Source of the DNA: Candidatus Woesearchaeota archaeon
Lineage (GTDB): Archaea > Nanobdellota > Nanobdellia > Woesearchaeales > B29-G15
NCBI GenBank assembly: GCA_017610005.1
Contig: JAFCCU010000002.1
Coordinates: 18,118-82,117, forward strand
DNA length: 64,000 nt
Direction: 5' to 3'
Shown piece by piece: positions 21,783 through 47,605 of this stretch. Position numbers and translations under genes: made by a program. The notes beneath the pieces are model-generated. The model was not told where the DNA came from. It ran no database searches and saw nothing but the letters and a program-made list of their open reading frames with translations. The stretch's first letter is position 1. Every line of letters begins with the position of its first letter.

Positions 21783-21813
21783 AAGTTAACCAGAAATAAC
21801 CCTTGTGATCACC

Positions 21814-23841: not shown

Positions 23842-23930
23842 CTTTTTTTTAATTAACTCCTTTATGGAGACCATTTTAATACGAAATATTTAAAAGAACA
23901 AGCTAACTTTCGTATTCTTGGTGATTATTT

Positions 23931-24362
23931 ATGGCAATTGTAGGATTTGGATTCACAAAAATACTTGTTGAGAAGAAAAAACAGTTAACCTCAAAAATTA
24001 ACATTAAAAATAATATTGCAATAAAAGATATTGTAGAACATGATTTTCATGATGCAGGAAAAGATAGGCAAGGCCTAAAATTTATATTTGAGTTTATATC
24101 AAGTTATGATCCTGGAGCAGCCGAAATAAGACTTCTTGGAGAGGTTTTTTTTATTGCTGAAACAAAGAAATCTCAAGAAATATTAAACACATGGAAGAAA
24201 GACAAGAAAGTAACAAAAGAAGTTATGCCAATTGTCTTAAACTATGCTCTGTCAAGATCTAATGTTATGGCAATTTCATTATCAAAAGATGCTGGACTTC
24301 CACCTCCTTTGCCCATGCCAAGGGTAAACAATGAAAAGGCCGATAACTCTTATATTGGCTAA
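23931..24362 (+). CDS. Hypothetical cytoplasmic protein (143 aa) between surface-protein genes A and B
   Basis: ATG ORF with no signal peptide and no motif recognised. Confidence 0.4.
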   Translation: MAIVGFGFTKILVEKKKQLTSKINIKNNIAIKDIVEHDFHDAGKDRQGLKFIFEFISSYDPGAAEIRLLGEVFFIAETKKSQEILNTWKKDKKVTKEVMPIVLNYALSRSNVMAISLSKDAGLPPPLPMPRVNNEKADNSYIG

Positions 24363-24397
24363 AAGTTTATATATTTGTTATTCAATTTTTTATCTTA

Positions 24398-26581
24398 ATG
24401 ATTAGATATACTGCTTTCTTCATAGCATTTTTATTAGCAGTGTCAATTGCTTCGGCAGCTTGCACTGATACAGATAATGGTAAAACTTACTATGAACTGG
24501 GTAATTGCCAGGCCCCAAATGGATACCCTGGTGATGATGAATGCTGGGACTGGCAAATTGTTAGAGAAAAATTCTGTCAAGATGACGAATCCTGCTGGTT
24601 TTATGATCACCCCTGTAGATATGAATGTGAAGATGGGGCTTGTATTCCTAATCCTAACGAATATTTGATTCCTGTAGGATATGATGGCAAGTGGTACGGC
24701 GCAAGATATCCAAGTAAAAATGACAATATCCCACCTTGCCTTGCATCAGTTAATGAGGGAGATTCAATCAACCTTGTAACAGCAGAATGGCTGGAATTTC
24801 CTGCAAGGGTAGAAGAGGCGCCTCATTCATTTAGGGAGCATATGAATGATTTCCAGATTGTTATTACTGATAATTCAGTTTCAGAGGGACAAAGGCAAGG
24901 GTTAATATTTTCCGCAAGTTTAATTTGTGAAGATGATAGGATGCAATGTATTGATCAGGCAACAAAGGTTAATACTAATAGATACCCAGATGATGGTGAC
25001 TGGATGCCAGGCTTCGCATTTGGAAATTTTTCAGATGAAATTGTGAGAAAAAATAATTATTGTATTGATGATGAGAACTTAACAATATACACATGTGCTG
25101 ATAAATACAATATTCAAAATGTAACAGTTGTATGTGAAAATGGATGCAGTAATGGTCATTGTAAACCTAGATACTTCTGCGAGGATTTTGATGAAGGTCT
25201 TGATCTAAGAACCCCCTCATATGTGGAGATTACAATTGAGCTCGATGGAGAAGAGGATTTTGTTAGAGTATATGAAGATTATTGCAACGGGGATAAAAAA
25301 ATAACAGAGAGAACTTGCAATAGAGATGGAACCTACAAATCAAATATTGAATCATGCTCTTGTGAGGAAGAAGACTGCTGCGATGAAGGAGCATGTGTCA
25401 GTGGGGGGAGCATTAGTGATGTTCCAACAACAATAATCCCTCAAGACCCTGCAGGAACTGAAGATTCTGGATGTTGTTTAAACCCAAATAGGGAAGCATG
25501 CGCCTATTACGACCGGGCGGAAAATTGCTGCTTGGAATGGGAAGATGAATATTTAGTGGAGGGGGGCCCAGTTGATCAGGCAGATTGCCTTGCAAATTAC
25601 TTTTTTGTCTATGAGACAGATGATGCTTGTGCAGTAATGGGAGAAGCATACAATTCATTTGCAAATTATGAGATGTGTTCTTATGGGTGTTGTTGTGTCA
25701 AGGGCCCCATGGGAGATGAAGACTATGTTTATACTGCAACAATTGAAAGAGGGGCTCTTTGTATGGAAACAGATGATAAAATGTGGAGTCCTTTAGCAGA
25801 CATAATTAATTGCGATGAAGCAACTTGTAGGGGGATTATTGCAAATGGTGGGAGCATCAGTGATATTCCCACTATTGCTGACCCTATTATTGATGACCCA
25901 ATTATACCCTCCTCTACTGAACCAATCGAAGATGAAGTTTGCGCTAACGAGGAATTTAAATTATGTTTAGATACTATTGATCCCTTGGGGGGATTTTATC
26001 ACTTCCAAGCAACCTCTGTTCCTTCAGGGGTTGTATTTCATCAAGATCAAGGTTGTATTGTTTGGACTCCAATAATGGAGAATTTGGGTTGGAATATAAT
26101 GAAATTTCAAGACACTGAAAAGGGCAAGGAGGCCCAGATGGGAATAAATGTTTTGTCTTGCTGTCCTGAATTTGTTGAATTACCAAATCAAGAGTCTTGC
26201 ATTAACCAAAATTTAGAATTTTGTTTAGAGGCAGAACCCAATAATGGGAATTTAATCTTTTCAGCAACAACTTACCCTACTGGTGCTACTTTCACTCCCC
26301 TATCGGCTTGCTTTTTATGGAAACCAGAAAAAGAAGGACATTACACAGCTGATTTTTCAGTGTCCAACGGAGAATGTGGAGATCAAATGCAGGTTTCAAT
26401 TTATGCTGGCTCTTGTGGGGCAGAAATCAGCAGCGAGGATGGAGGAATTGATTGGGGACAAATGTGGGTGGGGATAGGTTTAGCGGTGTTGGGTATACTT
26501 GCAATAGCTTTAAGCTGGATTGCTTTCCCAGTATTTTTCGTTATAGAAGCAATTGCAATTGCAATTATGGTATTTTCATAA
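24398..26581 (+). CDS. Cys-rich modular surface protein B (closest paralog of A)
   Basis: Signal MIRYTAFFIAFLLAVSIASA. Signature module ~25469-25840 (GCCLNPNREACAYYDRAENCCLEWEDEY...DACAVM...GCCCVKG). Two He_PIG-like motifs (VPSGVVFHQDQGCIVWTP; YPTGATFTPLSACFLWKP). C-terminal TM. Confidence 0.8.
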   Translation: MIRYTAFFIAFLLAVSIASAACTDTDNGKTYYELGNCQAPNGYPGDDECWDWQIVREKFCQDDESCWFYDHPCRYECEDGACIPNPNEYLIPVGYDGKWYGARYPSKNDNIPPCLASVNEGDSINLVTAEWLEFPARVEEAPHSFREHMNDFQIVITDNSVSEGQRQGLIFSASLICEDDRMQCIDQATKVNTNRYPDDGDWMPGFAFGNFSDEIVRKNNYCIDDENLTIYTCADKYNIQNVTVVCENGCSNGHCKPRYFCEDFDEGLDLRTPSYVEITIELDGEEDFVRVYEDYCNGDKKITERTCNRDGTYKSNIESCSCEEEDCCDEGACVSGGSISDVPTTIIPQDPAGTEDSGCCLNPNREACAYYDRAENCCLEWEDEYLVEGGPVDQADCLANYFFVYETDDACAVMGEAYNSFANYEMCSYGCCCVKGPMGDEDYVYTATIERGALCMETDDKMWSPLADIINCDEATCRGIIANGGSISDIPTIADPIIDDPIIPSSTEPIEDEVCANEEFKLCLDTIDPLGGFYHFQATSVPSGVVFHQDQGCIVWTPIMENLGWNIMKFQDTEKGKEAQMGINVLSCCPEFVELPNQESCINQNLEFCLEAEPNNGNLIFSATTYPTGATFTPLSACFLWKPEKEGHYTADFSVSNGECGDQMQVSIYAGSCGAEISSEDGGIDWGQMWVGIGLAVLGILAIALSWIAFPVFFVIEAIAIAIMVFS

Positions 26582-26606
26582 TTTTTTAACATTAAATTTT
26601 GTAAAC

Positions 26607-27684
26607 ATGAAAAAAGTAATTCTCTTGCTAATTTTTCTTTTAAACATTTACACAGTCTCAGCAGGATGCTGCATCAATCCAAATAGCTACGCTTGTTAGA
26701 TAGTTGATACTCAATGTTGCCCAACAGATGGAGAATACTCTTCTCCTTTTGGCCCCTCTGGACCAAATGACTATAAGACTTATTGGTTTTATGATTCAAC
26801 ACATCCAGAAGCATGCGCAATAATGGGGCTTGAGTCAAGCCCAAATTACCAATTATGTGAATTTGGATGTTGCTGTGAGCTAATGCCAGAGGGGATAACG
26901 AATGGAAAGCCTATGGCCCAGGCAGCTTGCATGGATAATCATCAACGTTGGCACACTTTTGATCAAATACCAGATTGTTCACCAACAAATTGCGCAGCAA
27001 AATTTAACACAAAAGCTGTTGGAGCAACAACTACTACAATAAATTTAGAAACAGCAAGAAGGAGAACTGAGGAATCAGGAGTTGAAGCAGAAGACTTCTT
27101 TGAAAGAGTGCAAGCATGTATTGGAGAACAGTTAGTGTGGTGTCACGATTGGTATATAATTGAGGAAGGTAAAATCCTCCCAGTGGGCGCAATAAGGGTG
27201 AATGATTGCTTTCATTGGACTCCTGACCAGGAAGGAGAATATCAAATAAGTTTAGGATATACGTTTGATGTGCCAAGTTATATAGAAAGAATGTTGCCAG
27301 AACCCACTTTGAATATTTCAGTGGATTACTGTGGTGATTGCTTTCTTATTGCAGAGATTGCTGATGAAAATACTGCAGAAGGGATATGATCCCTTTTATG
27401 GTTGAAGCTGCAGATGAAGAAGGGGATTTACTCACTTACTCAGCATTAAATTTACCAGAGGGCGCAATTTTCAAAACTGATATTGGATTATTTTTTTGGC
27501 AGAGCAAGGATGCAACACCCGGCATATATGAATTAGAATTTGTTGTAACAGATGGAAAATGCACTGTTTTGAGAAAGTAACTCTTGAGATTGAAGAGTGC
27601 GGCGACACATCAATAGTATCACAGATTCTTGCTATGCTTGCTATAATTTTTGGTGGGGCAACTGTTTATACAATTGCTGCATGA
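26607..27684 (+). pseudogene. Decayed paralog C of the Cys-rich surface-protein family (in-frame TAG plus at least 2 frameshifts)
   Basis: Signal peptide and GCCINPNSYAC then TAG at 26697-26699, exactly where paralogs have the conserved Tyr (C-x-Y-x-D). The frame then continues through CCPTDGEY...EACAIM...GCCCE. Frameshifts near 27386 and ~27575. The He_PIG-like and C-terminal TM remnant (ILAMLAIIFGGATVYTIAA) are in other frames. Confidence 0.75.
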
Positions 27685-27761
27685 GTTGGTTTAATTGATG
27701 CCCCAGCCCATGTAAAACAATATGGTAAATTTCTCGCTGATACAACTGGTCTTGGAACTTT

Positions 27762-27932
27762 TTTAAACAAAAGAATTCCACCCTTCTATTGAAGGGTGGT
27801 CTAGGTGGAATTCTGTGTGCTCAAAAATTACCTATGATCGGTGGAATTCTGAGCATCAAAAACCACTCAACAGCGAGCAAGCTTTTCAACATGCCACCAA
27901 TGTATTCACTGGTGGTTTTTGACAAGCAGTTG
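27762..27932 (+). repeat. MITE-like intergenic repeat, copy B
   Basis: Same family as 20930..21075 and 54199..54485. Lies between the pseudogene and surface-protein gene D. Confidence 0.75.
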
Positions 27933-27985
27933 CAATGCATTTTAATAGAAAAATTTAAATGTTAAAACCTTAAATAATAATAACA

Positions 27986-29587
27986 ATGAAGAAATTTGTA
28001 TTTGTAGTCATTCTTTTTTTACTCTTTTTAACAGCGTGTGACAAAGATACAGATGGTGATGGAATTTCTGATACTGAAGATAATTGTATTGGTATTAGAA
28101 ACTCGGATCAAATAGATTCAGATAAAGATGGCTGGGGGGATCCATGCGATTTTAATGAAGATCTAAGTGAAACACTTTTATATTTTTCCGCAACCTGGTG
28201 TACTTATTGCCATGAACAGTTACCAATTATTCGAGAACTTGATCAAGACTTTCCAGATTTAGAAATTCAATATCTTGATTTTGATGCAAGGCAAGATTTA
28301 GTTAGGGAATATGGTATTGTGGGTGTGCCTCATTATGTATTTATAAAAGGAGATTGTTGGAAAAAAACAAGAGGTACAACAAGTTATTCAGAATTAGTTA
28401 ATTGGATGGGAAAGGGTGCTTGCGCAAGATCAGCAGCAGTCCGTAGCCAAGGAGTCAATTTGCAGTCTGAAGTCATAAGTCAGAAGTCACTCAAACCCCA
28501 AACCCCAAACCCCAAACCCCAAACCTTACCAACTGGTTGTTGTATAAATCCTAATGAAAATGCGTGTGTTTATTCTGATGATATTGATAAATGTTGCCCA
28601 GTAGATGGTTATGAAGAATCAATAGGACCGCAATCACAAGCTGAATGTAAAGAACATTGGTTCTTTCCCCACGCAACAGAAGAAGCATGCAGCGTAATGG
28701 ATCCATTAACTTATGAAAATGCACAATATTGTGAATTTGGGTGCTGTTGCGAGGCTACCCCCATAGGTATAGCTGCATTTGCCTCAGAAAAAATCAAGTG
28801 TAATGATTATTGGGGAAGTTATGAAGAATTAAATTGCACGGTAAATGATTGTTCTAAATTTATTGAAGGGGGGGCAACATTAAAGACTGCTTCTCGTGTT
28901 TCTCCAATGGCAACAATCTCAGTTACTCAAACAGAAGATGAAACTTGCGTTGATGAATTGTATATTTTTTGTACAGTAAATCCTTTAGCTACTGAGATAT
29001 CAAATTTACCTGCTGGCGCAATAATTACTAACAACTGCATTGAATTCACCCCCACTGAAGCCCGTAGTTATTCAATTACGTTTAGAGAGGGAGATTATTA
29101 TTCAGAGGTACTAAACTTAGAGGTAATAGACTGCTCTGATCCGCCAGTTTTAGGATTCTTGCGAAATCGGAATGTATACAAAAATCAGATATTTAGTATT
29201 AGGGTACGTGCTACTGGGACAGGAGATTTGACATATGTAGTAGAGGATATGCCTGATGATGCCAAATTCAATCCAAAAAAATTAAAATTTTCTTGGATTC
29301 CAAGAGAGGAGAACGTTGGCAAACAATATAATGTTAAATTTATTGTGATAGATTCAAATGGGAGAACTGATGAAAAAACAGTTGAACTTAATGTTAGAAA
29401 TTATTCTTTCATGTGGATAGCTGGTTTGTCATTGGCCCTTGCAGGTTTACTTTACTTAGGTGCATTATTTTCCGGATTGCTTGAATCTCTAACATGGTTT
29501 TCCTCTTCTGCATGGATATATGTTGCAGGGGCTTGTATTGCGATATCCTTTATTCTGGTCGCGCTTTATTTTCTTTCGGGATTATGA
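27986..29587 (+). CDS. Cys-rich modular surface protein D with thrombospondin type-3 repeats and a thioredoxin-like CxxC domain
   Basis: Lipobox-like signal (FLLFLTAC). TSP3 repeats DKDTDGDGISDTEDNC / DSDKDGWGDPCD. Trx-fold motif LLYFSATWCTYCHEQ...GVPHYVFI. Pro/Thr linker encoded by repeats. Signature module ~28535-28860 (GCCINPNENACVYSDDIDKCCPVDGYE...EACSVM...GCCCEA). He_PIG-like LPAGAIITNNCIEFTPT. C-terminal TMs. Confidence 0.8.
   Translation: MKKFVFVVILFLLFLTACDKDTDGDGISDTEDNCIGIRNSDQIDSDKDGWGDPCDFNEDLSETLLYFSATWCTYCHEQLPIIRELDQDFPDLEIQYLDFDARQDLVREYGIVGVPHYVFIKGDCWKKTRGTTSYSELVNWMGKGACARSAAVRSQGVNLQSEVISQKSLKPQTPNPKPQTLPTGCCINPNENACVYSDDIDKCCPVDGYEESIGPQSQAECKEHWFFPHATEEACSVMDPLTYENAQYCEFGCCCEATPIGIAAFASEKIKCNDYWGSYEELNCTVNDCSKFIEGGATLKTASRVSPMATISVTQTEDETCVDELYIFCTVNPLATEISNLPAGAIITNNCIEFTPTEARSYSITFREGDYYSEVLNLEVIDCSDPPVLGFLRNRNVYKNQIFSIRVRATGTGDLTYVVEDMPDDAKFNPKKLKFSWIPREENVGKQYNVKFIVIDSNGRTDEKTVELNVRNYSFMWIAGLSLALAGLLYLGALFSGLLESLTWFSSSAWIYVAGACIAISFILVALYFLSGL
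28461..28527. repeat. In-frame simple-sequence tract inside gene D: octamer-family units followed by (AAACCCC) x 4.7
   Basis: cagtctgaagtcataagtcagaagtcac then aaacccc x4 plus aaacc (28493-28525). It encodes QSEVISQKSLKPQTPNPKPQT. Confidence 0.85.
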
Positions 29588-29648
29588 GCTTAGATATACT
29601 TAAGGATTTATAAAAACCTTTTTAAGTTCTCTGATATAACCTAAACAA

Positions 29649-31037
29649 ATGCTAAGAGTATTTAACACATTAACAAGGAAGAAAGAAGAGTTTATCCCAA
29701 TAAAACAAGGAGAGGTAAGAATGTATTCTTGCGGACTTACTGTTTATGGATTTGGGCATATTGGAAATTTTCGCGCGTTTATTGCATCTGATTTAATTTC
29801 TAGGTATTTAAAATATAAGGGATATAAGGTTACAAAGGTAATTAACATAACAGATGTTGATGATAAAACAATCAGGGGAGCAATTAAAGAAGGAGTCTCT
29901 TTAAACAAATACACTGAAAAATATATTAAGGGTTTTTTTGATGATATTAATACATTAAATGTTGATCCTGCTAATTATTATCCTAAGGCAACTGATTATA
30001 TTAAAGAGATAGTTGAACTTATTGAAAAATTAAAGGCTAAAGGCCATACTTATGAACAAGATGGCTCAATTTATTTTAAGATTTCAAGCGATAAAAATTA
30101 TGGGAAATTAGCGCATTTAGATTTTTCTAAATTAGTTGATAACGCGCAAGGACGGTTAGATTCTGATGAATATGATAAAGATAATGCAAGAGACTTTGTA
30201 TTATGGAAGGGTTACAAAGAAACAGATGGCGAAATATTTTGGAATACAAAGCTTGGCAAGGGAAGACCTGGATGGCACATTGAATGTTCTGCAATGTCAA
30301 CCAAATTATTGGGTGACTCTTTTGATATTCATACGGGTGGAGTTGATTTAATATTCCCTCACCACACAAACGAAATAGCTCAAAGTGAAAATGCAACTTG
30401 CAAACATTATGTGAAGTATTGGCTTCATAATGAATACTTAAAAGTTGAAGGCGAAAAAATGTCAAAGTCTTTGGGGAACTTTTTCACATTAAAAGATTTA
30501 TTAGAAAAAGGACTTGATCCAATAGCAATTCGTTATGAACTTTTAGCAACAAATTATAGAATGCCATTAAATTTTACAATAGATGGCGTAGGGGCATCAA
30601 AGGTTGCAATTGAAAAATTAAATAATTTTGTGTGGGAATTGACTGTTGCAAAAGAAGGAAAGTTATCAGAAAATATTGAAGAATTAATCAAATCAGCAAA
30701 AGATAACTTTGAATCTGCAATGGATGATGATTTTAATATATCTAGGGCACTTGCAAGTATATTTGACTTTATGAAATCAATCTTTAAAGAAGGATTTACA
30801 TCTGCTGATTCAAAACTAATTCTAAGTTTCTTAAAAAGTATCGATTCTGTGCTAGGAGTTATCTCTTTTGAAAGAGATACTGAGATTGATAAGAATATTG
30901 AGCAACTAATTGAACAAAGAAATATTGCAAGAAAAAATAAAGACTTTACAACAAGTGACAGAATTAGAGATGATCTGCTCAAGAAGGGAATTGAACTTTT
31001 AGACGGGCCAGAAGGCACTAAATGGCGCAAAAAATAA
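29649..31037 (+). CDS. cysS: Cysteinyl-tRNA synthetase
   Basis: 462 aa class I aaRS with MYSCGLTVYGFGHIGNFR (HIGH), KMSKSLGN, and the CysRS length and anticodon-binding tail. Confidence 0.9.
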   Translation: MLRVFNTLTRKKEEFIPIKQGEVRMYSCGLTVYGFGHIGNFRAFIASDLISRYLKYKGYKVTKVINITDVDDKTIRGAIKEGVSLNKYTEKYIKGFFDDINTLNVDPANYYPKATDYIKEIVELIEKLKAKGHTYEQDGSIYFKISSDKNYGKLAHLDFSKLVDNAQGRLDSDEYDKDNARDFVLWKGYKETDGEIFWNTKLGKGRPGWHIECSAMSTKLLGDSFDIHTGGVDLIFPHHTNEIAQSENATCKHYVKYWLHNEYLKVEGEKMSKSLGNFFTLKDLLEKGLDPIAIRYELLATNYRMPLNFTIDGVGASKVAIEKLNNFVWELTVAKEGKLSENIEELIKSAKDNFESAMDDDFNISRALASIFDFMKSIFKEGFTSADSKLILSFLKSIDSVLGVISFERDTEIDKNIEQLIEQRNIARKNKDFTTSDRIRDDLLKKGIELLDGPEGTKWRKK

Positions 31038-31065
31038 ATACTAGGGTTGTTGATTCTTAAGTATT

Positions 31066-32469
31066 GTGAAAAAAGAACTTATATATTTTTTAATGGCATT
31101 AGTATTATCTTTCTCAGTTGTTGGTGCTGGTTGTGATGGTTCAACCGGATTATGTGATGCTCCAGAAGAAGGACAAGAATGTATTTACGAAACAGATTAT
31201 GGATTTAATCTATACTTAAAAGGAACTTGTTCTGATGGGCAGATTGATCCAGTGACAGATAAATGCTCACAAGAAAGAGTGGGCGTGCCAGTTCAAATTG
31301 AAGAGTATTACTGCAATACTTACGGGCAGTGCCACATGATGCAAAAATGGTGCCCCAATGGGTGTTTAAATGGGGAATGTTTGCCTTCTGGTATACCTAC
31401 AACTTCTGCTACTCCTGGATGTTATGATGAAGATGGGGGTATTTTTTACGATCGACAAGGTACTTGCACAGATAAATTTGGAACCCACACAGAAAGTTGT
31501 GATTATGCAAAAGGGTATAGAATAACTGAATATTATTGTGTAAATGTAACTGGGGGAGATGGATGTGGGGGAGGAGTTTGTGGGGATGATGATGTTCCTG
31601 AATTCCGATGCATGGCGCAAGGCACAAGATGTAGTGGGGGTTATTGTGAGAGGGGCGCTTGTACAACTGAACTTTATATGGATAGTGCAACTCCTGGTTG
31701 TTGTTTGAACCCTAAAACAAGACCTTGTGATTATGTTTCTAATATTAGATCTTGTTGTCCTTCATCTTGGCAGGGATATGCTGCATGGGATGAACCTGGA
31801 CCAAAAGGGATATTTGATTGTGCAGCTGCTTGGTTTTTCCCTTCTGACTCTCCAGAGGCTTGTGCAGCCATGGCAGAAGCTGAGCATCCAAAAGCAGACA
31901 TGTGTGGCTTTGGCTGTTGTTGTTACAAAACTCCTAGTGATGAAATAAGGTCAGACCAACAAACCCAGTCAGAATGTACTGGCACCGATAAACAATGGGT
32001 AAATTTTGGTACAATAACTGAATGTACCCCCCAATATTGCCATGGTTACTTTGATGGGGGCACGCTTGCAGATGACCCAGATGTTCCAACCACAACTACC
32101 AGTGTGGAATACACTCCTGGCTCACCTCAAGAAGATGATGATGGGGATGGGGTAGTGAATGGGATTGATAATTGCATAAATACATTCAATTCTCAGAATA
32201 ATATTGATAATGATGAGTTTGGAGACGCATGTGATCCTGATATGGACAATGATGGAATAATAAATGAGGAAGATGAATGTCCTCTTGATATTACAAAATC
32301 AGTTAAACCTTGCAGTGACAAACAAATAGCCCCATTGTGGTTTTTGGCAGGAGGCGCATTAGCGGGATTAATTGCATCTTTTTTTATTCCTGGCGCAACA
32401 ATTATTATTGGATTGCTTATTGGTGCGATTTTAGGATTAATTGCATTATTATTGGTGAGTTCATTATGA
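31066..32469 (+). CDS. Cys-rich modular surface protein E (two CxDxDGG-type repeats, signature module, TSP3 repeats, C-terminal TM)
   Basis: GTG start. Signal MKKELIYFLMALVLSFSVVGAGC. Signature module ~31696-32050 (GCCLNPKTRPCDYVSNIRSCCP...EACAAM...GCCCYK). TSP3 DDDGDGVVNGIDNC...DPDMDNDGIINEEDEC. TM FFIPGATIIIGLLIGAILGLIALLLV. Confidence 0.8.
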   Translation: MKKELIYFLMALVLSFSVVGAGCDGSTGLCDAPEEGQECIYETDYGFNLYLKGTCSDGQIDPVTDKCSQERVGVPVQIEEYYCNTYGQCHMMQKWCPNGCLNGECLPSGIPTTSATPGCYDEDGGIFYDRQGTCTDKFGTHTESCDYAKGYRITEYYCVNVTGGDGCGGGVCGDDDVPEFRCMAQGTRCSGGYCERGACTTELYMDSATPGCCLNPKTRPCDYVSNIRSCCPSSWQGYAAWDEPGPKGIFDCAAAWFFPSDSPEACAAMAEAEHPKADMCGFGCCCYKTPSDEIRSDQQTQSECTGTDKQWVNFGTITECTPQYCHGYFDGGTLADDPDVPTTTTSVEYTPGSPQEDDDGDGVVNGIDNCINTFNSQNNIDNDEFGDACDPDMDNDGIINEEDECPLDITKSVKPCSDKQIAPLWFLAGGALAGLIASFFIPGATIIIGLLIGAILGLIALLLVSSL

Positions 32470-33605
32470 AAAAGTATTATACTAAGAGTAATAATGCAAA
32501 TGATATCATGAAACAAATCATATATTTTTTAATTGCAGTTTTATTAATTTGGAATGCTACTGCTACAGCTTATGATCACAGTTGTACTGATAGTGATGGG
32601 GGTAAGAATTACCATATTAAAGGTAATTGTGTTGACTATGACCAATCTGAGATGGACTACTGCAATGGTTATAATTATATCCAAGAGTGGTATTGCTTTT
32701 CTGGCTGTATGGACTTCCCCATGGAAGCTAGTTCAGAATTGCAAGGCCATGATCCTAATTGTATCTGGGGTTGTTATGATGGTAGATGCGCAAGTAATGG
32801 AGAAATCATTGAAAGTTTAGGTTTAATTTACACTCCGGGAGAGTGCCTTGATACAGATGGAGGAATTGATAAATTCACTGATGGAATTTGTATAGACTCA
32901 GATGGGAAGTATTACATCGAACAATGCAATAAGGGGAATGTAGAGGAATATTATTGTGAAAGCAATATGTGCAAAAGAGCATTTGGAGAACAGGATACTT
33001 ATTGTCCTGGTGGAACAGGTGAGATGCAGGATCAGGGAGGATGTGAAGCTGGCGCTTGTAAGAAAGTTGATGAAACCTTAAGTGGGTGTTGTTTTAATCC
33101 TGATACTGTTGCTTGTGAATGGATAGATAAAAGAGATGACTGCTGTCCTGTTTTTGGAGATTATGAAAAAGATTTGCCTTTTGGGCCAGATAAGACAACT
33201 GATTGCATTAATAATTGGTTCTTTAAAACTGAAAAGAGCGAAGAATGCCCTCCTAAATTAGATGTGTTTGAAAATAGTAAACATTGTCTTAATGGTTGCT
33301 GTTGCTTTAGAGATCCTGAAGGAGTTGCTCACGCAACTATTCTTCCCCAATTAGTTTGTAAATGGTGGCAGCCTTTTGAAGCTGTAGAAGAATTTGGTTG
33401 TGTTGATTCATATTGTGAAGAAATTGTGCCAATTGTAGAAGCAGGGATTGTTCCGCCTAAAGCTACAACTACAATTTTACAAGAGTCTCCGACAACAATA
33501 AATATCCAAGAACCAGAAGGAACTGGACTAAATACGTTTCAAATCTCAATTATAATTTTTATTATCCTTGTATTGTTCATCCTTGCAGCCCTCTTTTTGC
33601 TGTAA
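32466..33605 (+). CDS. Cys-rich modular surface protein F
   Basis: ATG at 32466 overlaps the stop of gene E (ATGA), so the two are translationally coupled. The ORF-track N-terminal extension from 32337 is an artefact. Signal MKQIIYFLIAVLLIWNATA. Signature module ~33084-33420 (GCCFNPDTVACEWIDKRDDCCPVFGDYE...GCCCFR). C-terminal TM. Confidence 0.8.
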   Translation: MKKYYTKSNNANDIMKQIIYFLIAVLLIWNATATAYDHSCTDSDGGKNYHIKGNCVDYDQSEMDYCNGYNYIQEWYCFSGCMDFPMEASSELQGHDPNCIWGCYDGRCASNGEIIESLGLIYTPGECLDTDGGIDKFTDGICIDSDGKYYIEQCNKGNVEEYYCESNMCKRAFGEQDTYCPGGTGEMQDQGGCEAGACKKVDETLSGCCFNPDTVACEWIDKRDDCCPVFGDYEKDLPFGPDKTTDCINNWFFKTEKSEECPPKLDVFENSKHCLNGCCCFRDPEGVAHATILPQLVCKWWQPFEAVEEFGCVDSYCEEIVPIVEAGIVPPKATTTILQESPTTINIQEPEGTGLNTFQISIIIFIILVLFILAALFLL

Positions 33606-33659
33606 AATTGGGAAAATTTTATATACCTTGGACATAACTTTTATATCCATAGATAACAA

Positions 33660-35078
33660 ATGTGCAAAATGAAAAGATTAATACCCCTGTTTATATTCTT
33701 ATTTGTAATTAGTTTTGTGTATGGTGGGACATACAATCCTCCAGCTCAAGGAATTGGGGCAATGACTTCTGCTTGGTGTATTGATGGAGATGGGCCCGAC
33801 ACTGGAGATTTTAGTACTCATCCAGATTATAGTGGAGACACAAACTGGGCCCCAGAACCAAGAAAAGTTAAAAGTTTTTGTACAAGCCAAATAGATTACC
33901 CTCATCAAAGAGAAGATTCTTGTGTTGATGGATTGTACTCTTTAATGGAATGGGAATGTACTGGCTGTGCAGGTGGGGGCAGTCAAGAATGCGATAACCC
34001 TTTAGATACTTGCGAATTTGGGTGTGTTCATGGGGCATGTTTAGATTCAAGACAAGATTTATTGAACCACATTTATGGGGCAGATAGCCCTGCTTCACTT
34101 TGGTTTGAAGGCCAGTGTAAGGATTCTGATGATCATGATGGGTTTTTATATGATAAATATGATGGAATGGATTATACCGTCCAAGGGGTCTGTGTTGATA
34201 GTAGAGGAGATGTATTTATTGATTATTGCAATAAAGGGCATTTACAAGAATATGTTTGCACTACCGGGGGAGACTGCACTCCACTTGATGAACCAGATGA
34301 TAATGAATGTGACTTGTGTAAGAATGGTAAGTGTATTACTCTTGATAAAACAGTTAGTGGATGTTGCTTAAGTGAGTTTACAACTGGGTGTGGGTATGTT
34401 GATAAATTAGATCAATGCTGTCCAGATTATGGCACTTACGCAGGTGATGATGAGACTGGTCCCACTAGCCCCGGAGATTGCCGTGATAATTATTTTTATG
34501 AAAGAGAAGATACAGAAGCTTGCAGTTTAATTCCTGATACTTTTGAAAATAAAGATTTATGTTTTAGTGGCTGCTGTTGCGATCTTGATACTGAAGGTAA
34601 TCCTCTTGGAAAGCCTTTAAAAAAAGTTGAATGTAACTTATGGCTTGCAGATGGTGTAATGGAACAATTTGGGGGATGTAATCCAGAAAATTGTTTAGTC
34701 GCATCAGGGGGGCAATCATTAATTTCAGGAGAGAGGGATAGCGATCAAGATGGGGTTAATGACGCAGAAGATAATTGTATTTATATCCCAAATCCAATAA
34801 ATGATGATGGGATCCAACTAGATTCAGATAATGATGGTTTGGGAGATGCCTGCGATCCAGATGATGATAATGATGGTATTTTGGATGTAGATGATGACCC
34901 AATAGTCCCTGAAACTTTTATGGAAAAATTATTTGCTTCAGAATCTTTCTGGGGGATACTTATTGCAATATTTGTTGTCCTTGCATTAATATTTTTTACT
35001 TCATTAACTTGGATACCAATTACCCTAATAGGTATTGGAATAGCACTAGCAGGAGTTTTAATTGAGTTTTTGGGGTGA
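33660..35078 (+). CDS. Cys-rich modular surface protein G (signature module plus TSP3 repeats plus C-terminal TM)
   Basis: Signal MKRLIPLFIFLFVISFVYG. Signature module ~34359-34700 (GCCLSEFTTGCGYVDKLDQCCPDYGTY...EACSLI...GCCCDL). TSP3 DSDQDGVNDAEDNC...DSDNDGLGDACDPDDDNDGILD. Confidence 0.8.
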   Translation: MCKMKRLIPLFIFLFVISFVYGGTYNPPAQGIGAMTSAWCIDGDGPDTGDFSTHPDYSGDTNWAPEPRKVKSFCTSQIDYPHQREDSCVDGLYSLMEWECTGCAGGGSQECDNPLDTCEFGCVHGACLDSRQDLLNHIYGADSPASLWFEGQCKDSDDHDGFLYDKYDGMDYTVQGVCVDSRGDVFIDYCNKGHLQEYVCTTGGDCTPLDEPDDNECDLCKNGKCITLDKTVSGCCLSEFTTGCGYVDKLDQCCPDYGTYAGDDETGPTSPGDCRDNYFYEREDTEACSLIPDTFENKDLCFSGCCCDLDTEGNPLGKPLKKVECNLWLADGVMEQFGGCNPENCLVASGGQSLISGERDSDQDGVNDAEDNCIYIPNPINDDGIQLDSDNDGLGDACDPDDDNDGILDVDDDPIVPETFMEKLFASESFWGILIAIFVVLALIFFTSLTWIPITLIGIGIALAGVLIEFLG

Positions 35079-35131
35079 ATTATTAACATTTGCCCACAAA
35101 GTTTAAATAACATTTTTTTTATTTAATTAGA

Positions 35132-37624
35132 ATGAAGTATTCACTTTCTTTACTCCTTTTCTTACTAATCCCCCTAACCTTCGCCGCAACACTTGAGACT
35201 TATGAGGGCGGAGCTGTTGACCCAGCAGGATTTTCTATGAGTGCTAGTGGCGCGCAAACACTTAGCATTAGTAAAACTGTTTATACTGACAGCACAATTC
35301 CCTTACAAATCTCCAATTCAATATATGGTTTTTCAATTTCAGGCAACTTCAATTTACAAACAGACTCAGCAACATTAAGAGTGATTTTAATAGATAGTAA
35401 TGACCAAGAATACTTGGTTTTTGAAGCATATAACTTGCTTTATGGCCAAGGTTATGGCTCATTTAATTACATCTGCGAAGAAACCTGCTTACTTCATGGA
35501 GTTAACCCAAGTAATCTAAAAGTTGAAATTGATGGTGCAACAATGGATATAGCTAATGCCCATTATATAACCCAAAGGCCTCTTTCTCCGCAGGCCATTA
35601 GTACACAGAAAAGTGATAATCAACAATCTCAAACAAATTTTAAAATCCAAAAGTTAAATGAAAAAGCAGAAGGCTGGATTGCTGGAGAAACTGAGGTGGG
35701 GAATTTATTATATTCAGAAAAAAAAAATCTTTTTGGAGGAGAAAAACTTCCTAACTTGCAAGGATTTGAATATTATAAAGGAGGAGTATTCTCTTTTGGC
35801 AAAAGCACAACAGTTAATCAAAAAAATTTAAACTTCCAGTTTCCAATTAAATTTGATTGGCGTGACCGCCATGGCAAGTCTTGGATTCCCAATATTGAAT
35901 CTCAAGGTCATTGTGGCGCTTGCTGGGCGTTTGGAGTATCATCAACAGTTGATGCAGTAATTAATTTGTATTATAATCGAAGGTTAAACATTGACATGTC
36001 TGAACAACACATTATTTGTGATAAAAAGGGTTCGTGTGTGGGTGGAGCTTGGCCACAAAGAGCTTTAAACCTTTTTAAAAATGAGGGAATTGTTGAAGAG
36101 AATTGTATGTATTATTCTGCAAGGGATGATGATTGTGATAGGTTATGTAATGAATGGCAAAAATCTCTTTGGAAGATTGAGGATTACCATCTTGTATTGG
36201 GATCAGATGATTCAATAAAAAAAGCATTAATTGAGCATGGGCCTTTAACTTTTGCGACTGCATTTTGGGATGGGAGATCAATGGAAGGTTCAAATTACGG
36301 AAATTTCCCGGATGGTCCAAGGCCTTGGGCAAATCATGCGATGAGTCTTATTGGATATGAGACTGGTTCATTAGAGACTATTTGGATTGTTAAGAATTCC
36401 TGGGGCCGTACCTGGGGCCAAAATGGTTATGGCTATATTCAACTGCCTTTTATTCAAAGATGGTCTATATACTGGATTGAACATCCTTATTTGGAATATG
36501 ATCCTGATAGATTTGAAGTGAGATGTGAGGATAAGGATGGAGATAATTATTGTAATTGGGGAATAATTGGGGATAAACCTGTTACTTGCCCAGAGAATTG
36601 CCTTCAATTAAAAGATTGCGATGATTCAAATCCTCACTTTGGCCCATACTCAGATACATTTGAATGTATTGAAATAACCTCCAGCAGGGCAGGAATTTCA
36701 GTAAAGAATGATTCAAAAGGGTGTTGTGTAAATCCCTATAGCGAGGCATGTGTGATATCCACAAAAAATCAGTGTTGCCCAGATGAAGGATATGGGGTTA
36801 CAAAAGATTTGGGACCAATTTCAAGAGAAGAATGTGAATCTCATTTTTTTTACCCTTCTGAATCAGCTGAAGCATGCGTGCTTATGGATTTATCAAGTTT
36901 TCCAAATGCTAATTTTTGTAATGCTGGTTGCTGCTGCACTAGATTTGAAGATTCTAAATTTTCTTTCCCTCTGCTGGAGGGTGAAGAAAAAATAAAGGCT
37001 CAATGTTTAAATGATTATCAAAGATGGTATACTTATCAGGAAGTAGGAGGATATTGTTCTAATTGGGAATGTGGGAATATTGCTTCAGGCATAGCCAGTA
37101 CATCAGGAACTCTTTATGGATCGCATCCGATAGATGAGTTTAATAGGCCACTTATTTCTTCTGCTATAGAATACAAGGGAACTGTGGGTGAAGAGTTAAT
37201 GTTTAGAATTGAGGCCACTGGGGCAAAACCAATTACTTTTTTAATGTTAGAATTTGAAAAGCCAATCCCTAACGGTGTTGAATTTAATCCAATCACTGGG
37301 GTTTTTAAGTGGACTCCAAAAAAAGCAGATGTTTTTACATTCAAGGTTGTAGCTCAAAATAAGAATGGTTATGATTCTGAATTGATTCAAATAGATATTT
37401 TTGATAATTCTCCTGCAGGGAATAACCTTATGTGGGGGTTAATCTTAGCAGGATTAGCTCTTTTTGTGGCAATTATAGGGATTGCTTTTTATGGGCTTAT
37501 TGGTTTTGTTGCAGGGTTTTTGGGGCTTGCAGGGCTCTGGGGAATGATAATTTCTGGAGTAGCAATAATATTGGCTGCACCTTCAGCTGGTTTTATTTTA
37601 GGATGGATATTGGGTTTTTGTTAG
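35132..37624 (+). CDS. Cys-rich modular surface protein H carrying a papain-like (C1A) cysteine peptidase domain
   Basis: Signal MKYSLSLLLFLLIPLTFAA. C1 motifs ~35850-36450: FDWRDRHG, QGHCGACWAFG (catalytic Cys), ANHAMSLIGYE (His), VKNSWGRTWGQNGYGYI (Asn). Signature module ~36719-37080 (GCCVNPYSEACVISTKNQCCPDEGYG...EACVLM...GCCCTR). He_PIG-like IPNGVEFNPITGVFKWTP. C-terminal Gly-rich TMs. Confidence 0.85.
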   Translation: MKYSLSLLLFLLIPLTFAATLETYEGGAVDPAGFSMSASGAQTLSISKTVYTDSTIPLQISNSIYGFSISGNFNLQTDSATLRVILIDSNDQEYLVFEAYNLLYGQGYGSFNYICEETCLLHGVNPSNLKVEIDGATMDIANAHYITQRPLSPQAISTQKSDNQQSQTNFKIQKLNEKAEGWIAGETEVGNLLYSEKKNLFGGEKLPNLQGFEYYKGGVFSFGKSTTVNQKNLNFQFPIKFDWRDRHGKSWIPNIESQGHCGACWAFGVSSTVDAVINLYYNRRLNIDMSEQHIICDKKGSCVGGAWPQRALNLFKNEGIVEENCMYYSARDDDCDRLCNEWQKSLWKIEDYHLVLGSDDSIKKALIEHGPLTFATAFWDGRSMEGSNYGNFPDGPRPWANHAMSLIGYETGSLETIWIVKNSWGRTWGQNGYGYIQLPFIQRWSIYWIEHPYLEYDPDRFEVRCEDKDGDNYCNWGIIGDKPVTCPENCLQLKDCDDSNPHFGPYSDTFECIEITSSRAGISVKNDSKGCCVNPYSEACVISTKNQCCPDEGYGVTKDLGPISREECESHFFYPSESAEACVLMDLSSFPNANFCNAGCCCTRFEDSKFSFPLLEGEEKIKAQCLNDYQRWYTYQEVGGYCSNWECGNIASGIASTSGTLYGSHPIDEFNRPLISSAIEYKGTVGEELMFRIEATGAKPITFLMLEFEKPIPNGVEFNPITGVFKWTPKKADVFTFKVVAQNKNGYDSELIQIDIFDNSPAGNNLMWGLILAGLALFVAIIGIAFYGLIGFVAGFLGLAGLWGMIISGVAIILAAPSAGFILGWILGFC

Positions 37625-44226: not shown

Positions 44227-46095
44227 TTATAGTTGACCATTTTGAATCATGGCCGGAATAGTTCTCTTTTGATCCATATACTCTTTTGGCCATGATACCT
44301 CATAAGATGTTCTCCCCGAACCAGCAATTTCTCCCACTTTGATTTGTGGGAAGACCAACAATCTTCCAAGGGGTCTGTCTGAAGTAGTCTTTCTAACCCA
44401 ATGAGCCCTTTTCATGCTAATATACTTGTCAAGATGGGCTTCAGTGGATTCATAGTCTCCAACCGCTTTCCAATCAGTTAACTTACCAAGCAGTTCTGCA
44501 GTTGTAGCTTCCCATTTTTCAATATCAATTGTGAATTTCTGAGAAACACTTTCTCCTGGCCTTGCATGTGCCCTTGTGTGATGGGACACAATTGCTCCTT
44601 TTTCAAGGAAATAGTGGAAGCACATGTTGGCTGCTCCAGAATGATCTTCTGCAGGGAACATTAATGAAAATGCCCAACCTATTAACTCGTTATAATATCC
44701 TGCAATCTTTTGTTCTTCCGTAATTACTCCCATTTCAACTAGATCTGGGAGAGTCCAGGAGGCAAAAAGATTGGCTCTTGCCTCTTCAAATTCAGAGAAT
44801 CTTGCATCATGTTCTCCAAAGTAATCATCAGGAGATTTTGGAAGATCATAGCCTCCTGTGGTGTGCCCAAGTTCGTGTTGGCCCATGTGTAGCTGCGACA
44901 TAAATCCAAACAGTGAGACATATTGGTGAGCTTCAGGCATTAAGAATTGATCTGCAAGTTCTGTTCCAACAGTCAATTGAACTGCCCTGTGAATATTAGA
45001 GAATATCACATTGACTGTTCCATATTTTTCTGCAACTTTCTTGTCATTTGGTAAGGATTCTGCAGCAGTTATAAACGGGAAATGGTCGTAGTTTCCAGTC
45101 CAAGATAAAACCTCGAGGAATTTTATAATTGGGACATTTTCAAGCGTTGCTTCATCCTTCTTATGATCCCAAGGAGCATTTTTCTCCCAATAAGTCATCC
45201 TTGCCTTAAGTTTTTCGATTAATGGATCAAATTCATGATTTACAAGACCAACCACTCCTTGAGCCATTCCTCTAATTCTAGCTATTCCATCAGAATATTT
45301 TTCAATACCAGTGCCAATAATAAAATCAAGATCACTTTTACTACCAATCCAAGCAACTTCACTTGCAGTTAAACTCTCTTTTGATCCAACTTGAAATTGA
45401 TTAATTGTTGCATCAAGATATGCCTCTAAGGTTGGTTCCTGAGTTAACTCTTTAGCCCGTTGTAAGGAGCTAATAATTGGTCTTAATTCTATTGCAAATC
45501 TTTCTTCATTTAAGGGGGCTATGTACCCTTCAGAAGTTTTAACAACTGTTGAATTAACTGCATCCCAGTTTTTAAGCCGTTTAATTTGTTCAAGAGGTAA
45601 TTCATCAGCAACAAGTCCTCTTGCTTTTGGGGGATCGGTGTGATCCCAAAGAGGGAGATCTCCTTCTAAAAATCCTTCAGGGATTCTATCTCTAGGGATA
45701 GGGAAAGGCAATGACCAGTGAAAAGCATCCCAAGGCGTATTTGATGCACTAATAAGTCTTGCATAATCTGTAACTTTTGCTTTGTCTTCTTCATCTTCTA
45801 AGGAATCTCTAACCTGGATCAATTCTCTTTGAAAATCAATCATTCTAGGATCTTCCTGGATTGCATAAATCGGATTAATTGAATCAACCCCTTCAGCTAT
45901 AGCTAAAGCAGTTTGCATTTGTGAGGGGGGGGTGGCTCTTAAAACACTTTCATCAATATCAATAGGAATGATCCAATGATCTCTTGTTTCAGTTACCTTT
46001 CCATTTGTTCTAGTATAAGGAACCCTTTTTAGTTCTGGCTTTTCTCCTACTTCCCTAACAATTGTACCTGTTTTTCCAACATTACTTGCTCCCAT
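44227..46095 (-). CDS. Zn metallopeptidase, DPP III (M49)-like HExxH ... EExRAE motifs, paralog 2
   Basis: HELGHTTGG ... EEARAN. AGGAGGATAAG then ATG. ~30-35% aa identity to paralog 1, judged by eye. Confidence 0.55.
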   Translation of the reverse strand: MGASNVGKTGTIVREVGEKPELKRVPYTRTNGKVTETRDHWIIPIDIDESVLRATPPSQMQTALAIAEGVDSINPIYAIQEDPRMIDFQRELIQVRDSLEDEEDKAKVTDYARLISASNTPWDAFHWSLPFPIPRDRIPEGFLEGDLPLWDHTDPPKARGLVADELPLEQIKRLKNWDAVNSTVVKTSEGYIAPLNEERFAIELRPIISSLQRAKELTQEPTLEAYLDATINQFQVGSKESLTASEVAWIGSKSDLDFIIGTGIEKYSDGIARIRGMAQGVVGLVNHEFDPLIEKLKARMTYWEKNAPWDHKKDEATLENVPIIKFLEVLSWTGNYDHFPFITAAESLPNDKKVAEKYGTVNVIFSNIHRAVQLTVGTELADQFLMPEAHQYVSLFGFMSQLHMGQHELGHTTGGYDLPKSPDDYFGEHDARFSEFEEARANLFASWTLPDLVEMGVITEEQKIAGYYNELIGWAFSLMFPAEDHSGAANMCFHYFLEKGAIVSHHTRAHARPGESVSQKFTIDIEKWEATTAELLGKLTDWKAVGDYESTEAHLDKYISMKRAHWVRKTTSDRPLGRLLVFPQIKVGEIAGSGRTSYEVSWPKEYMDQKRTIPAMIQNGQL

Positions 46096-46262: not shown

Positions 46263-46571
46263 CTTACCACTAACCTTCACTGGCACAATAATCTCACTAT
46301 TATTCTCCTTGATAATAACCTCATGCTCACCAGGTGGCAACTCAAAGGTTACCTTCGTCCAATCGTTAACAGTCTGAAGTTGAAAGTCTGAAGTTGAAAG
46401 TAACTTTAGACTTCGGACTTCGGACTTCTGACTTATTTGGGCTGTCCACACCTCAAACCCCTCTCCCCTAACCCGCAAAACAACTTCTCCATCAGTCTCA
46501 ATACTAGCTGGTGACACTGCAATTCCCTGGGCCAATGGAATTAATAATAAAAAAAGAATTAGATATTTCAT
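46158..46571 (-). CDS. Small secreted protein with a C-terminal TM anchor (137 aa)
   Basis: Signal MKYLILFLLLIPLAQG and a C-terminal hydrophobic helix. Translationally coupled to the upstream LTD protein (4-nt overlap). It contains an in-frame octamer-repeat palindrome at 46369-46435. Confidence 0.6.
   Translation of the reverse strand: MKYLILFLLLIPLAQGIAVSPASIETDGEVVLRVRGEGFEVWTAQISQKSEVRSLKLLSTSDFQLQTVNDWTKVTFELPPGEHEVIIKENNSEIIVPVKVSGKESSVFIGGLIVVIIVSFGLLIYFFTQRFINQASF
46369..46435. repeat. Octamer repeat family element, imperfect palindrome, in-frame inside a CDS
   Basis: cagtctgaagttgaaagtctgaagttgaaagtaactttagacttcggacttcggacttctgac. It encodes ...ISQKSEVRSLKLLSTSDFQLQTV... on the minus strand. 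Confidence 0.8.
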
Positions 46572-47605
46572 TTTGAAGCAGAGACCACAATTTCTCCAAA
46601 ATGTTTTCCTTCATTAATCCCTGGAGGGCTTTCAAATTGAAAGCTAACTGCCATCACTGTATTTACAAATAGTTCAAATTGAAAAGGCAATGTAAAAAAC
46701 TCATCCCCTAATGAAACTGAAATGTAATCACTTGTAATTGGACCAATTCCTGTACTTGAAAATTTTATATTGCATGGGACATTCCCAATGTTTTTTATTG
46801 TGGGGTGATTGATTGTATCAATGTCCGTGTCTCCAATAACGAGGAAGTTTTCAACAATTAGATTGTTTGTGTCCATAATAAAACCAAGAACTTCCATAAC
46901 AGTAAAATCAAAATTTTCAGTTGTACATTCTTGATTATTACAAATAATCACCATTAAATTATGAAGCCCTGGAATCATTGTTAAAGGAATATTTAAACTA
47001 ATAATCTCCACTCCATCCAGCAAAATTTGTGAAGAGGTAACCCCTCCTTGTACAATTAAATTAATCTCTTTTTCGCCAGGCAATACTTGGACTCCAGTAA
47101 TTTCAGATGCGTCATCAATAATAGAAAATTCAATTATGCTTGGAGCAGAACTTTCAACAGTTAATTCAACATTAATAATGTGAGAATTTTTGTAAGATCC
47201 ATCTGGGGTTGCAACTCCACAACCAGTTTCATAATAACTTTCTCCTTCGGTGCAGTCTCCAGGATAGGAAAGTTCAGCAACTATCCCTCCCTCAGAAAAT
47301 AATTTAACATAACCTCCTAAATTATTAAGAGTCATATCTTCTTCATAATCAGCTCCATTATTATAACCTTCATCAGCAATTAAGATTGTTCCAGAAAATG
47401 TAAAACCTAAAGGAAAAGTAACATCTCTTTCAGAGCTGGTTGTATTTAACCAAAACCCAGAGATATCAACTTCTGTTTTAGAATACAGTTCTACATACTC
47501 TGATTCATATTCAGATCCAATTGGATTGTAATGGATCTCATTTATAGTTATTGCATTTGCACTGCTAATGCAAATTAAGATTAAAAAGAGGGTTATTTGT
47601 TTCAT
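46568..47605 (-). CDS. Secreted lamin-tail-domain (LTD) protein
   Basis: Signal MKQITLFLILICISSANA followed by ITINEIHYNPIGSEYESEYVELYS, the characteristic LTD opening (INEIxYNP...E-hydrophobic-ELYN). Confidence 0.6.
   Translation of the reverse strand: MKQITLFLILICISSANAITINEIHYNPIGSEYESEYVELYSKTEVDISGFWLNTTSSERDVTFPLGFTFSGTILIADEGYNNGADYEEDMTLNNLGGYVKLFSEGGIVAELSYPGDCTEGESYYETGCGVATPDGSYKNSHIINVELTVESSAPSIIEFSIIDDASEITGVQVLPGEKEINLIVQGGVTSSQILLDGVEIISLNIPLTMIPGLHNLMVIICNNQECTTENFDFTVMEVLGFIMDTNNLIVENFLVIGDTDIDTINHPTIKNIGNVPCNIKFSSTGIGPITSDYISVSLGDEFFTLPFQFELFVNTVMAVSFQFESPPGINEGKHFGEIVVSASK

Follow-up and report, generated by a model that had tools for sequence, protein, structure and literature searches.

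Two described systems may be regarded, by analogy, as the closest functional precedents for the protein discussed here, the product of gene H, which lies in a 64,000-nucleotide stretch of DNA (the window) on contig JAFCCU010000002.1 of a Candidatus Woesearchaeota archaeon. The first is Cwp84 of Clostridioides difficile, a surface-associated papain-family (C1A) enzyme with a jelly-roll accessory domain, which cleaves SlpA, the S-layer precursor (PMC4089489). The second is the group of SPEARE proteins in Nanohaloarchaeota, which belong to the DPANN archaea. These large, mostly extracytoplasmic proteins combine protease and adhesion domains, have a transmembrane (TM) segment near the C-terminus and were proposed to act at the contact between symbiont and host (PMC6642349).

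Gene H differs from both. Cwp84 (PDB 4ci7) is bacterial, is held at the surface by cell-wall-binding repeats with no TM tail, and carries its jelly-roll after the catalytic domain. In gene H, by contrast, the catalytic domain is followed by a Cys-rich mini-domain, not by a lectin-like domain, and Pfam, which gives only Peptidase_C1 and He_PIG, matches no cell-wall-binding (CWB2) repeat. The SPEARE proteins, at 3,000-8,500 residues, have a protease of the serine type and, on the cytoplasmic side, a restriction-endonuclease part; they are likened to gene H by description, and no sequence relationship is expected. When set against papain-family zymogens (procathepsins H, L and B, pro-Der p 1 and procaricain), gene H has no sequence-detectable ERFNIN/GNFD or cathepsin-B-type propeptide signature, an extra jelly-roll before the pro-region and four more C-terminal modules, including the membrane anchor. 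The papain family itself has been reported across all major archaeal lineages, including DPANN, in a survey that mentioned the numerous multidomain prokaryotic C1A proteins and left them unanalysed (PMC10380794).

Gene H is best described as a member of a known enzyme family in an uncommon architecture, in which the rare parts are a lineage-specific, Cys-rich signature module and a TM tether, not the protease. The analysis shows its domain composition, its intact catalytic residues, a modelled fold that resembles those of zymogens, its nature as a single-gene fusion and its conservation in a syntenic ortholog. A preliminary description of this DNA had called a surface C1 protease unusual in an archaeon. 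This holds for the fusion to the module and for the C-terminal TM segment, both of which are rare, but not for the protease, whose family is found across archaea and whose conserved unit occurs in more than 500 proteins. Taken together with the predicted structure, these features make it fairly probable that gene H encodes a Sec-exported C1A zymogen that would be left anchored outside the archaeal cell after activation.

The protease unit and its predicted fold

Gene H (35132..37624, + strand, stop codon included) is one unbroken open reading frame (ORF) of 830 residues, which encodes the entire fusion. The protease region originally reported at 35850-36450 falls inside this ORF, in which there are no in-frame stops, so that the protease, signature module, Ig-like domain and TM tail do reside on one polypeptide, as first proposed. 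An identical 830-residue protein (P0001) is recorded at NCBI and JGI, from a 111-kb contig. Its catalytic domain (residues 238-437; 35843..36442, +) is recognised by Pfam Peptidase_C1 (PF00112) at 128 bits (cut-off 20.7; E=7.4e-37), over nearly the same stretch as first noted, which confirms the family assignment that had been made from motifs. phmmer further matched gene H to 167 papain-family PDB chains, with cathepsin C at the top (2e-24) and zingipain and Der f 1 also present, and the two-lobed papain fold is found in gene H.

The catalytic triad, which had been presented as intact on the basis of the motifs QGHCGACWAF, NHAMSLIGY and NSWGRTWGQNGYGYI (each found in the gene H translation), is indeed so. 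In a BLASTP alignment with mature papain, Gln258, Cys264, His402, Asn422 and Trp424 pair with papain Gln19, Cys25, His159, Asn175 and Trp177, respectively, and KNSWGRTWGQNGY is aligned with the papain segment holding Asn175 and Trp177. The active-site motif QGHCGACW (35903..35923, +) contributes the oxyanion-hole Gln258 (35903-35905) and the nucleophile Cys264 (35921-35923), while the catalytic His402 (36335-36337), the catalytic Asn422 (36395-36397) and Trp424 of the NSWG motif (36401-36403) lie within 36335..36403 (+). These residues are highly conserved in an alignment of 84 sequences of the protease family, in which Cys264 and His402 are found in all 84, Gln258 in 83, Asn422 in 82 and Trp424 in 80. 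In the same alignment, the disulfide cysteines Cys296, Cys302 and Cys335 are invariant, which fits an extracytoplasmic enzyme.

Residues 19-520 were modelled with AlphaFold from 84 sequences, with a predicted local distance difference test (pLDDT) score of 91.6 and a predicted template modelling (pTM) score of 0.91. The model starts with an all-beta domain at residues ~35-150 (35234..35581, +), which contains a CEETC motif, is conserved within the protease family and resembles CBM36/CBM6 jelly-rolls. It continues with a pro-region at residues ~151-237 (35582..35842, +), composed of a long helix followed by a short strand and helix and containing the conserved LPNLQGFEYYKGGVF, and then with the papain fold. 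It ends with a small Cys-rich mini-domain at residues ~445-515 (36464..36676, +), with CEDKDGDNYCNWG and, further on, DCDDSNP, the columns of which are conserved in the 84-sequence alignment and which marks the end of the conserved protease unit. The possible pro-region of the preliminary description finds support in this model, since its best superpositions are with procathepsin zymogens, pro-region covered: zymogen structures align over 240-253 residues, as against 187-200 for mature enzymes, that is, 40-55 more. Within the family, the pro-region is strongly conserved, with W-x-AGET and LPNLQGFEYYKGG standing out. The linker at residues ~219-238, modelled with lower confidence, is likely to be the activation-cleavage zone. 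An exclusion domain of the cathepsin C, or dipeptidyl peptidase I (DPPI), type was considered and rejected because 3pdf_A aligns over 214 of 351 residues, covering the catalytic part only.

The protease unit as a whole (residues ~35-515, that is, jelly-roll, pro-region, C1 domain and Cys-rich mini-domain) is of a type common among uncultured bacteria. Among the best 120 of 505 matching homologues, more than 100 are collinear with it, at 31-42% identity, and, of the columns in the family alignment of the unit, 13 are invariant and 60 nearly so. Homologue coverage of gene H ends at residue ~515, falling steeply past ~520, and none of these best 120 homologues bears the signature module. The source names recorded in the family include Paceibacterota, Dojkabacteria, Patescibacteria, Pseudomonadota, Beggiatoa, Marithrix, Desulfobacteraceae, Draconibacterium and entries labelled "archaeon". 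Since more than 500 proteins, most of them bacterial, have this unit, there is nothing unusual per se about a C1A protease that is secreted and multidomain. An N-terminal hydrophobic segment is present in 99 of 119 family homologues and a C-terminal one in a single homologue out of 119, other C-termini in the family being PKD, Big, type IX secretion system (T9SS)-type sorting or further domains. PF11617 is recorded for some homologues and has no match in gene H at E<=0.1. A scan of genome contigs with gene H returned no close relative, just distant members of the protease-unit family.

Gene H thus falls within an unnamed prokaryotic multidomain C1A subfamily that spans Patescibacteria (the candidate phyla radiation, CPR), Bacteroidota, Desulfobacterota, Beggiatoa-like bacteria and some archaea. 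It is collinear with this subfamily over residues ~35-515, the DCDDxNP mini-domain included, and differs from it by the signature module and the C-terminal hydrophobic tail. To our knowledge, neither a structure nor an activity has been reported for this jelly-roll, pro-region and C1 subfamily. Judged from the sequences at hand, its distribution would fit a transfer between bacteria of the CPR and archaea of the DPANN group. Two of the closest homologues of the unit (P0003 and P0004, ~37-41% identity) are encoded on bacterial contigs, where sortase genes are found at a distance of one or a few genes (14292-15158 in L011, 6356-7144 in L012), which suggests sortase-dependent anchoring there and a bacterial origin of the unit.

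The C-terminal half and the conservation of the fusion

What follows the protease unit is far less common. The signature module (residues 528-653; 36713..37090, +) was defined from an alignment of the seven intact paralogs of the window, from which a profile was built and searched exhaustively with HMMER. Its pattern is GCCxNP..C..CCP..GP..C..FF..C..C..GCCC..C..C..C, all 13 conserved cysteines are present in gene H, and the profile matches at 133.7 bits. Among 1.84 billion cluster representatives, the module was found in just 38 clusters, several of which are the window's own genes, and a scan of metagenome contigs with an alignment of the junction plus module returned nothing. AlphaFold2 models most of the module at pLDDT >90, and no fold match for it was found in the PDB.

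The module is followed by a He_PIG/cadherin-like Ig domain (residues 683-749; 37178..37378, +). Its match to He_PIG (PF05345, cut-off 24) is borderline: the full protein scores 23.2 bits, and sub-sequences score 24.5 and 26.0 bits, the latter when residues 515-765 are scanned alone. As a fold it is a beta-sandwich that weakly matches cadherin-like domains. The protein ends with a 69-residue uncharged hydrophobic tail rich in Gly, Ala, Ile and Leu (residues 762-830; 37415..37621, +, delimited by a hydropathy scan), which is probably a membrane anchor of two or three helices. Comparable tails are found at the ends of paralogs A, B, E and G, of P0132 (described below) and of the ortholog fragment on contig L008. 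Most intact paralogs (21805-37624) and this fragment (4594-5379 in L008) have such Gly/Ala/Ile/Leu tails of 40-70 residues, with repeated GxxxG spacing, few or no charges (none in gene H) and a length exceeding that of one TM helix.

Orthologs that retain the fusion were sought in related genomes, as the preliminary description had suggested, and one was found. Full fusions are encoded in two of the 38 module clusters, gene H and P0132. The latter, an 811-residue protein, has a protease unit 34.5% identical to residues 34-501 of gene H, and beyond this unit it has the module, TSP_3 repeats and a hydrophobic tail. Its gene is on an independent JGI metagenome contig (L007, 49% GC), at the same site as gene H, directly after the cysteinyl-tRNA synthetase (CysRS, 65% identity) and before a convergent valyl-tRNA synthetase (ValRS, 57%), and it retains the catalytic Cys, His and Asn. 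Gene H is 33% identical to this ortholog, compared with 57-65% for the flanking synthetases. Because P0132 recurs at the CysRS/ValRS site, the fusion is an inherited single gene and no assembly artefact. Alternative readings in which the protease is a separate gene or the product of a chimeric assembly were rejected on this basis, there being no internal stop in gene H and P0132 repeating the fusion at the syntenic position in an independent metagenome.

Other relatives present a more varied picture. In the closest one found (L008, with 76% ValRS identity), the convergent gene next to ValRS consists of module, He_PIG and TM segment and is 36% identical to residues 526-827 of gene H (191 bits, against at most 74 for other paralogs); the contig ends precisely where the protease part would start. 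In a relative with 69% ValRS identity (ERZ1426824 contig), two TSP_3-bearing genes, which are probably members of the module family, lie beside ValRS, and no C1 gene was found within 10 kb of the syntenic site. In a relative with 70% ValRS identity, an unrelated gene occupies the site. The fusion is therefore conserved yet not universal among relatives. The number of module genes between conserved housekeeping genes also varies greatly in the stretches compared (29649-31037 in the window, 511-1902 in L007 and the ERZ1426824 contig): eight in the window, of which one is decayed, one in L007 between CysRS and ValRS, and two probable ones in the relative with 69% ValRS identity. The module family expands and contracts quickly.

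A proposed tethered zymogen and competing explanations

We infer the export of gene H, its activation step, its membrane topology and its substrates as follows. From the membrane outward, the predicted order would be the 69-residue anchor, the He_PIG domain as a spacer, the 13-Cys module, the Cys-rich mini-domain, the catalytic domain, the pro-region and, most distally, the jelly-roll. By comparison with procathepsin zymogens, the pro-region would lie across the active-site cleft until a cut in the flexible linker (residues ~219-238), whether autocatalytic or made by a second protease, freed the jelly-roll together with the pro-region. The Cys264/His402/Asn422 enzyme would then stay tethered a few domains above the membrane, where it could cut proteins near the cell surface. 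Its substrates would most likely be proteins from the environment or from a partner cell, degraded for peptides or to open the partner's envelope.

A rather improbable alternative is that gene H serves specifically to mature the neighbouring paralogs or envelope proteins of the cell itself, in a manner analogous to Cwp84, an arrangement in which the shared module would bring the protease beside its substrates. The unit, however, serves hundreds of unrelated secreted or surface proteins, in organisms without the module family, and general degradation of external proteins is therefore more likely than obligate processing of paralogs. Further arguments against such processing come from two relatives, since the fusion is the sole family member between CysRS and ValRS in L007, while the relative with 69% ValRS identity has two probable family members and no C1 gene near the site. 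In addition, no conserved candidate cleavage motif was found in the paralogs.

Several points weigh against the reading of gene H as a tethered, active zymogen, and concern (i) the pro-region, (ii) the surroundings of the active site and (iii) the anchor. With respect to the pro-region, residues 1-237 have no Pfam match at E<=1, and a profile of 22 pro-region sequences retrieved no procathepsin from the PDB, its sole match being a spurious one to a phycobilisome linker. The predicted placement of the pro-region in the cleft is read from the aligned lengths of the superpositions. Moreover, LPNLQGFEYYKGG is unusually conserved for a propeptide that would be discarded, and the segment may remain attached and alter specificity. 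With respect to the active site, the segment directly before His402 (36257..36334, +) is 26 residues long in gene H as against five in 78 of 83 homologues, which amounts to a lineage-specific insert of ~21 residues abutting the catalytic His. This insert is poorly modelled (pLDDT 53-61) and corresponds to a gap (19 residues) in P0132. The latter protein has lost the Cys22 equivalent, is one residue short between its oxyanion Gln and its nucleophile and reaches only 67 bits with Pfam, an active-site degeneracy that hints at relaxed constraint. Finally, the TM anchor and the topology are predicted from hydropathy.

The same points bear on two further explanations. One, which we consider quite unlikely, is that gene H is a catalytically silent adhesin or pseudo-protease whose papain fold and jelly-roll merely form a binding head. 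In other paralogs, the scaffold does bear heads in which no enzyme domain can be recognised, and the degeneracy of P0132 and the unusual insert beside His402 would be in keeping with it. Nevertheless, all five catalytic and oxyanion residues are intact in gene H, P0132 keeps its Cys, His and Asn, the nucleophile and the catalytic His are conserved throughout the family, and the retention of a putative zymogen-type pro-region would be understandable only in an active enzyme. As far as can be read from its sequence, nothing in gene H itself suggests a pseudo-enzyme. The other explanation, for which we would give similarly long odds, is that gene H is an exopeptidase, in which a retained part of the pro-region or the insert before His402 would restrict the cleft, by analogy with the mini-chain of cathepsin H or the exclusion domain of cathepsin C. 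This would account for the insert, and the conservation of the pro-region might fit it too, but the N-terminal domain is of the CBM36/CBM6 type and not a cathepsin C exclusion domain, there is no sign that any part of the propeptide is retained, and the insert is missing in P0132 and in nearly all homologues. An anchored, Sec-exported C1A zymogen is the reading that we retain for gene H.

Genomic setting and significance

Upstream of gene H, a TATA-box-like TTTAAATA (35101..35108, +), read from the sequence 24 nucleotides 5' of the ATG, is possibly the gene's own promoter, in which case the mRNA would be leaderless or have a short leader. The ORF opens with a putative signal peptide (residues 1-19; 35132..35188, +), within a hydrophobic segment spanning residues 1-24, with predicted cleavage at MKYSLSLLLFLLIPLTFA|A.

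That the window is archaeal, as initially stated, is confirmed by its genes. These encode RLI/ABCE1, an archaeal-type ValRS (PRK13208), isoleucyl-tRNA synthetase, CysRS, a proteasome subunit, FttA, a split RNA polymerase B and RNA polymerase A'/A''. Among named proteins, those closest to this ValRS come from Candidatus Woesearchaeota (identities of 70%, 60% and 57%) and then from Nanoarchaeota, which places the organism among the DPANN archaea. The GC content of the window is 35%. Eight genes on the + strand, from 21.8 to 37.6 kb, have the Cys-rich module in common, gene H being the last of them, and the tetrapeptide GCCC occurs eight times in the six-frame translation, exclusively in these eight genes. 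CysRS sits within the array, while ValRS, on the opposite strand, converges on gene H.

Two of the other module genes deserve mention. Paralog D (27986-29587, +) combines a thioredoxin domain (PF00085, E=1.5e-11), its WCTYC motif intact, with a TSP_3 repeat, both of which precede the signature module, He_PIG and hydrophobic tail. This thioredoxin, a second enzyme head on the scaffold, might oxidise or isomerise the family's many cysteines outside the cell; thioredoxin is found in three of 39 module-family proteins. Paralog C (26562-27600, +) is a decayed copy: the frame starting at ~26562 encodes a signal peptide and the beginning of the module, an in-frame stop separates GCCINPNSYAC from IVDTQCCP, the ORF at 26823-27389 corresponds to the remainder, and a He_PIG-like stretch lies past 27380 in another frame.

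Elsewhere in the window, the gene at 5740-7551 (+) encodes a 603-residue protein that has a hydrophobic segment at its N-terminus and lacks the signature module. Its amidohydrolase domain (PF01979, E=1.9e-14) is a further case of an enzyme combined with a thrombospondin-type-3 (TSP_3) repeat, here at the C-terminus. A few kb downstream of gene H are a Peptidase_M49 (DPP III-like) gene (44227-46095, -) and a lamin-tail-domain (LTD) gene (46568-47605, -). An M49 gene also adjoins RLI in contig L009, and the ERZ1426824 contig has an LTD gene in this neighbourhood.

DPANN archaea are regarded as dependent on other cells, very few of their surface-acting molecules are known, and Woesearchaeota are probably partner-dependent. 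A more far-reaching possibility, which we think unlikely, is that signature-module genes form a Woesearchaeota-specific surface display system, built on an undescribed disulfide-rich fold with exchangeable heads acting at partner contact, and that gene H, the member retained at the conserved CysRS/ValRS site, cuts envelope proteins of the partner. If so, the heads would be adhesive Cys-rich domains, the thioredoxin of paralog D and the protease of gene H, and cleavage of the partner envelope by the latter would serve the contact or the feeding of the symbiont. Conversely, should gene H be an ordinary nutritional protease, the finding would reduce to routine annotation.

The interest of gene H rests on (i) a rare and structurally unmatched stalk module, (ii) a conserved genomic position and (iii) its testability with cysteine-protease tools. 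Gene H is a concrete candidate for a DPANN surface enzyme, for which standard probes and inhibitors (E-64, DCG-04) exist. It identifies the module family as a modular scaffold bearing enzymes besides binding domains, and it draws attention to a large subfamily of papain-like proteases in prokaryotes, so far uncharacterised, that combine a jelly-roll, an unusual pro-region and a C1 domain.

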